64,000 nt of DNA from Candidatus Thorarchaeota archaeon (GTDB lineage: Archaea > Asgardarchaeota > Thorarchaeia > Thorarchaeales > Thorarchaeaceae), in the NCBI GenBank assembly GCA_029855935.1, contig JAGSHN010000016.1, forward strand, positions 1-64,000. The letters are read 5' to 3'. A program made the translations under genes and the position numbers. This document shows positions 48,869 to 51,800 of this stretch, piece after piece (position 1 is the first letter of the stretch; each line of letters opens with the position of its first letter). The notes beneath the pieces are model-generated. The model did not search any database. It was not told the origin of the DNA and worked only from the letters and a program-made list of their open reading frames with translations.

Positions 48869-51800
48869 ATGCGGTCACGACCCTCCTCCCATCTCACATC
48901 ATCGGCATACACGTGTGCGGCCCTCATGCTCCTTGTCATGGTCGCCTTGAGTGGCACAGTTTCAGTTCCCGTCGTTGCAAGCGTGACGGGTTCGATGGCT
49001 CATTCGGACGTTCTGCCCCAGCGGCCTGTCGACAAGATTGACCCGCGTCTTCTGAATCTGTCAGACCCGTCTGAGCCAGTCAACGTTCTGGTGAAGTACC
49101 GGGACGAGATTGGGGCTGTCAAGGCCGCATCGGCCATTGAGACAATCTCCCGGATTGGTGAGCTCAGACAGGTGTATGATAGTCTGTCCATGGCCAGCGT
49201 GCGGATAGTCGCTGGCGACCTGCCGCGCTTGGCCCGTGAGCGTGTGGTCACGAAGATCTGGGCCGACGAGCCTGTGCATATTATGTCCCAATATCCCCCC
49301 GCGTGTTCGGCGCCATCATCGCAGGGCTCTGACAACTATGCTCCGCTGATAGACCAATTGGGAGCAAGACAGCTCTGGGAGCAGGGCTACAACGGCACCG
49401 GGGTTGTCGTCGCTGTTCTTGACACGGGAATCGACTTCACGCATCCAGATCTTGATGACTTTGATGATAATGAGAGCACGCTCGATTCAAAGGTCACGGC
49501 CTACGCATCTTTCGTCGAGGCTGACACCCTACCTGTGGACATCCTAGGTCATGGCACCTTTGTCGCGTCTGTCATCGGCGGCACAGGCAACAAGTCCGCG
49601 GGACTCTATGCTGGTGTCGCACCGGGCGTGTCGCTTCTCGCCGCAAAGGTCACGCTCGGCGGAATGCTCACGGTTCCCAGCTGGGTCGTATCTGGCATAG
49701 AGTGGGCGTGCAGTCGGGGCGCCGACATAATAGTCATACCGTTCAACACCTTCGGTGCGCCGGGAGATGCAATCTCCGAGGCGGTCCGATGGGCGGCAGA
49801 GAGAGGGGTCCTGGTGATTGCTGCAGCAGGAGATGATGGTCCTGACTATCTCACGATAATGTCACCCGGTGGATCCCGTGAGGCTCTCACCATTGGTGCC
49901 TACGACTCTCAGACGGGAACCATACCATCCTTCTCTGGCCGTGGTCCATCCTTCGAGATGATGGCCAAGCCCGATCTTGTGGCGCCCGGAGTGGGGATTG
50001 TCGGTGCAAAGGTGGGTGCTGGACTGTCACAGGCTGGGTTTGGCGGGTTTGACCTCAGCAGTGTGGGCGAGATCTCTACCATAGTGGGAGGCACTAGCGT
50101 CGGTGAGGCCATCGATGACTACTACGTGATTGCCGACACAACGGCCGCGGCAGCCGGTGTCGTGGCTGGTGCTGCTGCCATCCTGCTCCAGGCATTTGAT
50201 CGGGCCACTCCAATAGTGGTTGGAAATGTTCTCCGGGACACGGCACATCACCTCCCCTATGGCGCCAATGATGCCGGAGCGGGGCTCGTCGACCTCCCAG
50301 CCGCGTTTTCCTATCTCAGCAAGATGCAGTCCCCAGTTGAGCCGCGCATTCGCACGACGGGGACCCCGCTGCTTGCGACGGGTATTGTGGTGGCCGATAG
50401 CGATGGTGCGACAACAACCGCGCTGCTGAGCAGTTATGGTACGATGGTGGCCGTGCTGAGAACCACCGACGACAACACGACATCAATCCATCTGATGATG
50501 GGCACGCTCTCGCTTCGATGGAACAACCTCGACCCAATCAGTCTGATGATGTTTGACGTGGAGAGAGAGATGCATCAGGTGTACACATCCTCTCCTCCCG
50601 ATGGCTACAGCCGGTATGTTGGTGTCATCTCGTACGAGGACACAGTCTTTGTGATACTGGTCGTCGAGGCGTACAATCTCACTCTGACCACTACACAACC
50701 GCTCACAGGCTTCAAGATTACGCCAATTGTGCTCAATCTGGGTCAGGAGCCCATCACCAATGTGAGTCTGTTTCTCTCGTACTCTCTGGACCTGTTCCTC
50801 GACGGACGTGACGACCACGGCAAGTATGCTCTCAACAATCAAGAGGTGTTCGCCTACGGCCAGTCTGAGGACTATGAGAACTTCTATTTCGGGTTCAACT
50901 CGAGTCGCCCGTTCGGGGCCTTTGAGGTGGGCAACTCGTCGGACATAGGCGACCATGTGACCGCAGACAACCTGACAGGTTCGACGACCTTCGATGGCAC
51001 TGTGGGACTTGCGGCCAGGTGGGACTTTGGAGAGATTGCCCCCACAGAGACGTCAAACGTCACAATCGTGCTGGGCTTTGGTGACAACAGGACCATGCTC
51101 GATGCCTCCATTGACATGTTATGGTCGCTCAAGCCGTCGCCTCAATTTCGCCAGCAGGGCGACCTGATGGTGGTGTCGGCTGACATACCGCGGGTCGTGT
51201 CGCCAGGGCAGACCTATCACTCGAGTGCTATTGTGATGAATGTCGGTGTTGATCCATCACCTGTTGTTGCCGCGATGATTGTGGGGAACGTCAACTCTTC
51301 GACCTCAGGGACGCTGTTCTCCAGCTTCTGGAGCGAGGATGAGCTGGCGCCCTTCCACGCAATCCGTCTCGATGCTGAATGGACACCTGAACATGCCGGG
51401 ATATTCTCGGTGGCATGGGTGACGGCTCCAACGGTCGCCTCGGCAATCAGCCTGTTTGTCAGCCCAGCGACTACACTGCTCGCGAGTGGTGCCGGCCTTC
51501 TTGACGACTTCCTCGTCAGGGATGTCTTCGTCGGTACTCCTCTTCCATCCACCTCAGTGTTCCCACGGACTCTGCCGTGTGCCCCATTCGACCTGAGATT
51601 TCCGGGCGACTTCGGAATGTTCGGCTTCATGCTCACGACCACGGTGCCTCTCGGGAACCTCACCATCCAGAAGTACGGTAATGCGACGGAGTGGGGCAAC
51701 TTCTCATTGACGCCTGCTGAGAGTGTTGATGGCTACTATAACTTCTCGCTCATTGCGTTTGTCCCTATCATTACGATGGACGGATATCACGAGTCGGACT

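Follow-up and report, generated by a model that had tools for sequence, protein, structure and literature searches.

Results

A subtilase-like gene among ABC-2 transporter genes

We analyzed a 64,000-nucleotide stretch of DNA from a Candidatus Thorarchaeota archaeon (GenBank assembly GCA_029855935.1, contig JAGSHN010000016.1, positions 1 to 64,000 of the forward strand), hereafter called the window. At positions 48869 to 53326 (+), the window carries a gene for a 1485-amino-acid (aa) protein (P0001) that contains a subtilase (S8) fold and is predicted to be a type I membrane protein; the gene lies among genes for an ABC-2 permease and two ABC ATPases. An earlier note, made from the DNA letters, had described the protein as a natural pseudo-protease in which the catalytic Ser is replaced by Ala. 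Its open reading frame (ORF) is free of internal stops, as that note had read it, and the public gene call (P0002) begins 19 aa inside the start of this ORF. From the N to the C terminus, the protein consists of a signal, a prodomain, a pseudo-S8 domain, beta-sandwiches, a GIFT domain, an Ig-like domain, a transmembrane (TM) helix, and a cytoplasmic helix.

The classical active site of the S8 domain is replaced

Two of the checks proposed in the earlier note, a match to the Peptidase_S8 hidden Markov model (HMM) and a superposition on subtilisin, identify the domain as a subtilase. The non-catalytic S8 domain (aa 176 to 465; 49394 to 50263, +) matches PF00082 Peptidase_S8 with 151.9 bits against a gathering cutoff of 21.8, which places it in the S8 superfamily by sequence. 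Its structural model (pLDDT 72.6) superposes on Tk-SP chain 9ues_B with a VIA Z of 37.0 and a root mean square deviation (rmsd) of 2.7 Å over 286 residues and on subtilisin BPN' with a VIA Z of 34.2 and an rmsd of 2.1 Å; such close superpositions indicate that the subtilisin alpha/beta fold is intact.

In a phmmer search against the PDB, the best match of the protein was Tk-SP (3afg/9ues; 148 bits), and the third catalytic motif aligned without gaps (query YYVIADTTAAAAGVVAG versus Tk-SP YYTAAPGTAMATPHVAG). Ala426, whose GCC codon was read directly at 50144 to 50146 (+), pairs with Tk-SP position 359, that is, with the catalytic Ser359 and the equivalent of Ser221. Residue 359 of the 3afg chain itself reads Ala; we take this entry to be the S359A mutant of Tk-SP. 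Instead of G-T-S-x-A-x-P with its nucleophilic Ser, the motif here is D-T-T-A-A-A-A. The other two members of the triad are present: Asp185 (49421 to 49423, +), the Asp32 equivalent, stands in VLDTG and conforms to D-[TS]-G, and His228 (49550 to 49552, +), the His64 equivalent, stands in GHGT and conforms to H-G-T. The oxyanion Asn155 position is occupied by Asp322 (49832 to 49834, +), giving AAGD for AAGN, and the substrate-binding strand S125-L126-G127 by P291-F292-N293 (49739 to 49747, +), so that V-I-P-F-N (aa 289 to 293) stands where N-x-S-L-G is canonical. All these readings, from the ungapped Ala at the nucleophile position to the VLDTG, GHGT, AAGD, and VIPFN motifs, had been made in the earlier note and were borne out by the alignment to Tk-SP. 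In the catalytic helix of this protein, Ala replaces Met222 and Gly replaces Pro225; across the clade described below, both positions hold Ala. The former cleft is thus lined by four acidic residues (D185, D322, D323, and D423), together with H228 and the Pro-Phe-Asn strand.

The earlier note had also counted the oxyanion Asp among the losses. The substitution is real and is found in all 120 orthologues aligned (see below), but it would not be inactivating on its own: an Asp at the oxyanion site does not by itself inactivate subtilases, as is seen from proprotein convertase PC2 and the sedolisins, which have Asp at this site.

The remodeled S8 domain is strongly conserved in Thorarchaeota

We searched 5.8 billion proteins and obtained more than 120 orthologues (1435 to 1491 aa; 54 to 75% identity in the S8 region), and nearly all records with names are from Thorarchaeota. 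Across 120 of these orthologues, the column equivalent to Ser221 holds Thr in 62, Ala in 48, and Ser in 10; the closest relatives (P0003, P0005, and P0006) have Ala as well. Asp is found at the Asp32-equivalent position in 118/119 orthologues, and the His64 equivalent is His in 112, Ser in 5, and Pro in 3. P291, F292, N293, G321-D-D-G-P-D326, D423, and T425 are invariant. We then built a maximum-likelihood tree of 110 full-length orthologues, on which column changes were counted by parsimony. The nucleophile column changed at least 20 times, versus 0 times for D322, D323, D423, and T425; D-H-T occurs in 58/110 and D-H-S in 5/110 of these sequences. Codons for Ala, Ser, and Thr are one base apart, and the column behaves as a site that needs merely a small residue.

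Column conservation over the full-length alignment is highest in the S8 domain (0.92 at aa 251 to 300 and ∼0.80 at aa 301 to 500) and lower elsewhere, with 0.54 to 0.58 in the prodomain and linker and 0.58 to 0.65 in parts of the middle region. This pattern indicates that the S8 domain is under strong purifying selection. The nucleophile is gone, and yet no part of the protein is better conserved than the S8 domain, whose invariant residues cluster in the three former active-site loops; we therefore propose that it is a functional noncatalytic module and not a decaying remnant.

A deep Asgard clade lacks the canonical nucleophile motif

To look beyond Thorarchaeota, we ran HMMER against 1.8 billion cluster representatives and considered the matches ranking below the Thorarchaeota orthologues. 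There, we found about 35 distant relatives of 1300 to 1780 aa, named Lokiarchaeota, Helarchaeota, Ranarchaeia, or "Promethearchaeota," which match the query well past the S8 domain with 26 to 38% identity and keep the S8 plus GIFT/ABC_transp_aux layout. The family HMM alignment showed that G-T-S-M-A-x-P is missing in every one of them: A, G, T, S, F, or D stands in the nucleophile column, D prevails at the oxyanion position, and roughly half have R, S, E, I, D, G, or T instead of the catalytic His. Matches with canonical motifs (GTSMATPHVAG, AAGN, and GHGT) appear only lower in the HMMER list. In a tree of 130 S8 domains, the distant relatives and the Thorarchaeota proteins form one clade (SH-like support, 0.999), apart from 72 canonical D-H-N-S sequences. 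The changes that distinguish this clade all fall at catalytic or substrate-binding positions, namely, G100-like to T/A, S125 to P/C/A, N155 to D, S221 to G/A/T/S, M222 to A, T224 to A, and P225 to A. These sequences are best explained by an old, Asgard-specific pseudo-S8 clade in which the classical active site would have been lost once. The proposal of a natural pseudo-protease therefore gains ground, as this protein shares the loss of the nucleophile with every orthologue and with a deep Asgard clade, and the domain is strongly conserved.

We also evaluated the distribution of the family in 251 genomes sampled from the phylum, using the family-specific C-terminal part as a query. Within the window's own family, 56/59 genomes had it, mostly in a single copy. 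It was also frequent in five further Asgard families (1/1, 5/5, 17/19, 6/6, and 3/5 genomes), and this query did not find it in others (e.g., 0/26 and 0/16).

Some members of the clade have a formal Asp-His-Ser set (P0130 and P0138 from Helarchaeota and P0033 from Thorarchaeota), combined with the oxyanion Asp and the clade's Ala-rich helix in place of M222/P225. Separately, other Asgard archaea contain a clade of S8-GIFT proteins with a canonical triad (P0185, P0178, P0262, and P0251; ∼1220 to 1290 aa), whose named members come from "Promethearchaeota" and Lokiarchaeota, and of which P0178 ends in a zinc ribbon. The dead clade may have its active counterpart in these canonical proteins.

Domains flanking the S8 fold

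The N terminus contains a hydrophobic signal or anchor (aa 14 to 41; 48908 to 48991, +), with a Kyte-Doolittle peak of 2.29 over aa 9 to 41. It is followed by an I9-like prodomain (approximately aa 55 to 135; 49031 to 49273, +), which was identified by comparing the family profile to the N-propeptide of Pro-Tk-SP (3afg residues 9 to 418 correspond to profile positions 34 to 462) and from the predicted model, where aa 70 to 132 form a beta-alpha-beta-beta-alpha-beta unit (pLDDT 81 to 90) ahead of a variable, low-confidence linker.

Downstream of the S8 domain, the model of aa 521 to 1400 has a pLDDT of 85.6. It begins with a super-beta-sandwich (aa 521 to 763; 50429 to 51157, +), which aligns over ∼218 residues with the N-domains of glucodextranase/GH15, GH94, and GH116 enzymes (VIA Z 16 to 20) and, judging from this model, may have a glycan-binding or spacer role. 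A further sandwich and a helical unit precede a beta-sandwich (aa 895 to 1000; 51551 to 51868, +) for which VIA gives a superposition on the P-like subdomain of site-1 protease (S1P). The GIFT domain comes next (aa 1001 to 1267; 51869 to 52669, +). Its fold is recognized in the structural model, with a VIA Z of 21.3 and an rmsd of 2.2 Å over 190 residues to the mmIFT52 N-domain (5fms_A) and a Z of 20.8 to 5fmr_C, and its Pfam matches are sub-threshold. IFT52 was also the sole match when the C-terminal 975 aa were searched by sequence against the PDB (E 0.07 to 0.19; phmmer E 0.073). A disordered Gly/Ser/acidic loop of ∼55 aa (aa 1017 to 1071; 51917 to 52081; pLDDT < 50) lies inside this domain. 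A word-indexed search with the GIFT region (aa 1000 to 1385) retrieved family members only, with no bacterial or eukaryotic relatives among proteins of 816 to 2599 aa.

A membrane-proximal Ig-like beta-sandwich (aa 1268 to 1370; 52670 to 52978, +), assigned from the secondary structure of the model, leads to the TM helix (aa 1388 to 1407; 53030 to 53089, +), which is followed by RARRRRRLR. The predicted type I topology is based on the hydrophobic N terminus and on this single TM helix with its basic flank. The 78-aa cytoplasmic tail (aa 1408 to 1485; 53090 to 53323, +) is helical and conserved, with column conservation of 0.73 to 0.76. All 27 N-x-S/T sequons are in the ectodomain, which has an isoelectric point of 4.4.

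An ABC-2 permease and two ATPases are conserved neighbors

Upstream of the pseudo-subtilase gene are genes for an ABC-2 permease (45979 to 47163, +; Pfam ABC2_membrane_3, 1.7e-28) and for an ABC ATPase (47182 to 48861, +; ABC_tran, 1.1e-27), whose ∼240 extra N-terminal residues form a TrmB-like module (Regulator_TrmB, 5.1e-6). The gene for a second ABC ATPase (53304 to 54317, +; ABC_tran, 3.8e-27) has a start that overlaps the stop of the pseudo-subtilase gene, and it is followed by the gene for a 2257-aa surface protein (54278 to 61051, +; TSP3_bac, 2.1e-134), in which at least 23 calcium-binding TSP3 repeats accompany an N-terminal beta-propeller (with matches to BBS2_Mid and further propeller families), and then by a gene for a TPR protein. 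Two genes without a Pfam match, for proteins of 320 aa (42418 to 43380) and 783 aa (43371 to 45722), precede the permease gene, and each of the three other Thorarchaeota loci has one or both of them upstream of the operon.

We then compared this arrangement with nine loci of relatives. The order permease, ATPase, pseudo-subtilase, ATPase, and giant protein is kept in three Thorarchaeota genomes (L013 to L015; ∼51% identity) and in one member of a sister family (L021; 34% identity); the TPR gene follows in three of these four loci, and the fourth contig ends first. In four more distant loci (L016, L017, L019, and L020; 27 to 31% identity), the permease(s) and both ATPase types are adjacent, without the giant protein or the TPR gene, so that the giant TSP3 protein is linked to the operon within the Thorarchaeota order only. 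Linkage to ABC genes, of the kind seen for GldG, is thus kept at 8/9 Asgard loci examined, and the conserved core therefore consists of the ABC-2 permease, two ATPases, and the S8-GIFT protein.

Other subtilases of the genome

The same genome contains approximately eleven other S8 genes, whose readable third motifs are normal GTSxA, with AAGN wherever that column is readable. One of them encodes a 968-aa S8 plus GIFT paralogue (G000:C16:41879-44269, +; equal to L022:1321-4224) with intact Asp, His, Asn, and Ser (GTSAATPQIAG and AAGN). There were no ABC genes within ±10 kb of it; its best PDB match was Tk-SP, and S1P was matched through the S8 domain only. Two shorter proteins of 658 aa (G000:C19:44718-46451, −) and 668 aa (G000:C10:19638-21410, +) combine an N-terminal S8 half with a GIFT-like region and are without the catalytic His and the Ser segment; the second of these genes is located 1.4 kb downstream of an ABC-2 permease paralogue (41% identity).

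Discussion

Our favored explanation is that the protein is a catalytically dead S8-fold binding module carried on a GldG-like accessory subunit of an ABC-2 machine, which we consider probable. That it is not a working serine protease is, from the residues of its former active site, very likely, and in MEROPS terms it is a predicted nonpeptidase homologue of family S8, failing the defining catalytic features. A role as an accessory subunit of the ABC-2 machine, with which it is associated by gene order, seems reasonably likely.

In this proposal, the protein would serve the ABC-2 machine as an accessory subunit on the extracytoplasmic side, much as GldG does with GldA and GldF. The TM helix and the conserved cytoplasmic helix would couple the ectodomain to the ATPases, and what was once the substrate cleft would be retained as a putative binding site in the form of an acidic pocket (D185, D322, D323, and D423, plus H228). 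The invariance of the remodeled cleft (P291-F292-N293, G321-D-D-G-P-D326, D423, and T425) suggests, indirectly, a binding module or substrate trap, as the earlier note had supposed; candidate ligands are a peptide segment, perhaps the uncleaved linker of the protein's own prodomain, or else a surface protein acting as partner, or a cation. From subtilase biochemistry and the precedent of CspC/CspA (PMC7200643), we infer that the prodomain would not be removed by its own S8 domain and may stay attached, as it does in those proteins. Its cleavage in trans by another subtilase of the genome is possible.

Several observations weigh against this explanation. The Pfam matches at aa 1119 to 1252 remain below threshold in this protein, with 20.7 bits against a gathering score of 27.2 for IFT52_GIFT, 21.5 against 30.4 for DUF4350, and 13.4 against 34.7 for ABC_transp_aux; most orthologues carry precomputed PF23355/PF14258 matches. 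One of the nine relatives' loci (L018) is free of ABC genes over ±8 kb. Within Thorarchaeota, 94 to 99% of the orthologues retain Asp185 and His228, which could hint at residual or different chemistry, and the nucleophile column holds Thr in half and Ser in a few of them, so some could keep weak activity. The main rival, residual or nonclassical hydrolysis, starts from these residues: in the orthologues bearing Thr or Ser at position 426 (D-H-T or D-H-S, the latter also in the Helarchaeota members), that residue would act, or else a water activated by Asp185/His228, with Asp322 as a protonated oxyanion residue as in sedolisins, and the Ala form would be a weakly active or regulatory allele. 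The oxyanion Asp is compatible with such catalysis, being found in the active PC2 and sedolisins. However, this protein and its three closest relatives have Ala; the column flips among T, A, and S with no sign of constraint; the wider clade has G, A, F, or D there and often R, S, or E for the His; and other residues stand at S125, M222, and P225, the positions that give the catalytic helix and the substrate strand their shape. Restoring the triad also failed to revive CspC/CspA (PMC7200643). On balance, we regard nonclassical hydrolysis as unlikely.

A stand-alone surface or S-layer-associated adhesin or glycan-binding protein, with the dead S8 domain as a scaffold and the ABC genes merely coregulated, would fit the 27 sequons and the acidic ectodomain, the resemblance of the super-sandwich to N-domains of carbohydrate-active enzymes, the giant TSP3/propeller neighbor within the Thorarchaeota order, and the L018 locus. 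We nevertheless find it rather unlikely, since the permease and both ATPases stay adjacent down to ∼28% identity and the giant protein does not, the pseudo-subtilase and ATPase genes overlap, the conserved cytoplasmic tail argues for an intracellular partner, and GIFT domains characteristically accompany ABC-2 transporters (PMC5682007). The earlier note had itself named two ways in which its proposal could fail. One was that the Ser of a GGTSV string (aa 407 to 411; 50087 to 50101, +), in a Gly-rich loop, is the true nucleophile; a loop rearrangement would then have displaced it. This Ser410 lies in a sequence resembling GTSxG, 16 residues upstream of the canonical position, but the string pairs with the SGTSMG loop of Tk-SP, which precedes the catalytic helix and is not its catalytic motif, residue 359 lying further down. 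Moreover, Thr409 is an insertion unique to this lineage (a gap in 105/120 orthologues), Ser410 is kept in 82/120 orthologues and replaced by D, A, G, L, or P in 38/120, and the model has low confidence there (pLDDT 44 to 54), as expected of a surface loop; a nucleophilic Ser410 is thus highly improbable. The other was recent decay or a sequencing or assembly error in an otherwise active protease gene, with close orthologues all keeping GTSMA. The GCC codon is indeed one base away from TCC (Ser), and the sequence comes from a metagenome-assembled genome. Yet the canonical motif is missing in all 120 orthologues and the ∼35 distant relatives, six more catalytic-site positions are changed in concert, and the ORF is intact with this domain as its best-conserved part. 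Independently assembled Logan contigs (∼30× coverage), from the probable source run, a hydrothermal vent metagenome, show 0 differences over positions 49300 to 50500. This run is the only one listed as containing the stretch, and no RNA run is listed for it. We consider decay or error already refuted and give it next to no weight against a catalytically dead binding module.

The novelty of the family is that a deep clade of subtilase pseudoenzymes occurs in a new architecture and context; such pseudoenzymes themselves are a known kind. To our knowledge, subtilase pseudoenzymes are known from few cases only, the best studied being the germination sensors CspC and CspA, and the order of prodomain, S8, beta-sandwich, GIFT, and TM is otherwise known to us from eukaryotic S1P. 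In the library searched, we found no paper describing this family, none tying Thorarchaeota to subtilisin, pseudoenzymes, GldG, or S1P, and none treating Asgard archaea together with the GIFT domain. Nearly all public records of the family with a functional name are called "S8 family serine peptidase" or a similar subtilisin name, and a few records read "hypothetical protein" or "DUF4350 domain-containing protein." Arguments for peptide-degrading lifestyles in Asgard archaea draw on protease inventories, which are therefore too high by at least this family. With its catalysis lost, the family is also a natural experiment in how a subtilisin cleft can be reused.

Comparison with known systems

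Among solved structures, Tk-SP from Thermococcus kodakarensis (3afg and 9ues) is the nearest relative in both sequence and structure; the family profile matches it with 286 bits, N-propeptide included, versus 154 bits for S1P. Tk-SP and the present protein share the extra loop containing G-T-S-x-G before the catalytic helix. Tk-SP is, however, an active and soluble enzyme with Asp, His, Ser359, and Asn and without GIFT or TM regions, whereas Ala, Asp, and P-F-N take the corresponding places in the present protein.

In mechanism, the nearest parallel is CspC and CspA of Clostridioides difficile, S8 pseudoenzymes that function as sensors or regulators, in which the triad His and Ser are replaced (Thr170/Gly485 in CspC and Gln757/Ala1064 in CspA) and the uncleaved prodomain stays bound in the pseudo-active site (PMC7200643). 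Some Csp homologues have a formally intact triad and are nonetheless inactive, and restoration of the full triad in CspC/CspA did not bring back activity (PMC7200643), so a formal triad does not predict activity. The Csp proteins are bacterial, soluble spore proteins without GIFT, TM, or an ABC operon, and the Thorarchaeota proteins, in contrast, mostly keep the His. Csp chains were absent from the best 60 PDB sequence matches, and we treat the Csp proteins as analogues in mechanism only.

The genomic context resembles that of GldG, which forms an ABC transporter with GldA and GldF in Bacteroidota, its transported substrate being unknown (PMC5682007). GIFT domains typically accompany ABC-2 transporters, as in ABC_transp_aux (PF09822) and GldG (PMC5682007). 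Both GldG and the present protein are large extracytoplasmic GIFT membrane proteins encoded beside ABC-2 permease and ABC ATPase genes; GldG, of ∼560 aa, is without a subtilase domain, and the present system has two distinct ATPases.

The overall architecture recalls S1P (MBTPS1/SKI-1), which comprises a prodomain, an S8 domain, a P-like beta-sandwich, a GIFT domain, a single TM helix, and a cytoplasmic tail (PMC11231238). The present protein has the same pro-S8-(P-like)-GIFT-TM order, apart from ∼375 extra residues between the S8 and P-like domains, which form the super-sandwich and Ig-like domains. In Foldseek, the C-terminal model matched S1P (8uw8 and 9csd) best (E 3e-10), and the P-like and GIFT domains of S1P superpose as one unit (model 375 to 747 versus chain 482 to 874; VIA Z 19.0, rmsd 4.2 Å, 302 residues). 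S1P is an active protease with Asn338, in contrast to Ala426 and Asp322 here. Our searches found no special sequence relationship to S1P: S1P was outside the best 60 PDB matches of the S8 domain, which is no closer to it than to bacterial subtilisins, and the GIFT sequence match in the PDB search was IFT52 and not S1P. The ∼375 inserted residues also speak against a link. The canonical Asgard S8-GIFT paralogues had no special sequence relation to S1P either. Since Asgard archaea also have such intact S8-GIFT proteins, which match Tk-SP first, common ancestry of the fusion with S1P is possible but unsupported.

OST48/DDOST (Wbp1) likewise combines a GIFT-type domain, a beta-sandwich, and a single TM helix. 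Its alignment (model 481 to 880, from GIFT to the model end, versus chain 45 to 443; 314 residues, Z 18) has an rmsd of ∼14 Å, with a differing domain orientation; OST48 is without a subtilase domain, and no sequence-level match to it was found. The ESM Atlas gave leads below 0.9 only (OST48, 0.79, and MBTPS1_4th, 0.77), which we take as leads and not as evidence.

A bolder proposal would be that Asgard archaea have two sister sets of pro-S8-beta-sandwich-GIFT-TM proteins, one catalytically intact, with the 968-aa paralogue as its example in this genome, and one turned long ago into an ABC-2-wired pseudo-protease, in an architecture homologous to S1P, with the GIFT-TM half homologous to OST48; we think this doubtful, though worth stating. 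Were it true, the dead copy would serve as a binding subunit that is driven by ATP and actuated mechanically, with a logic like that of FtsEX acting on the degenerate LytM protein EnvC, and S1P-type membrane subtilases would be another eukaryotic signature module of Asgard origin. The shared module order thus leads to a concrete question on the origin of S1P and of GIFT-domain membrane proteins.

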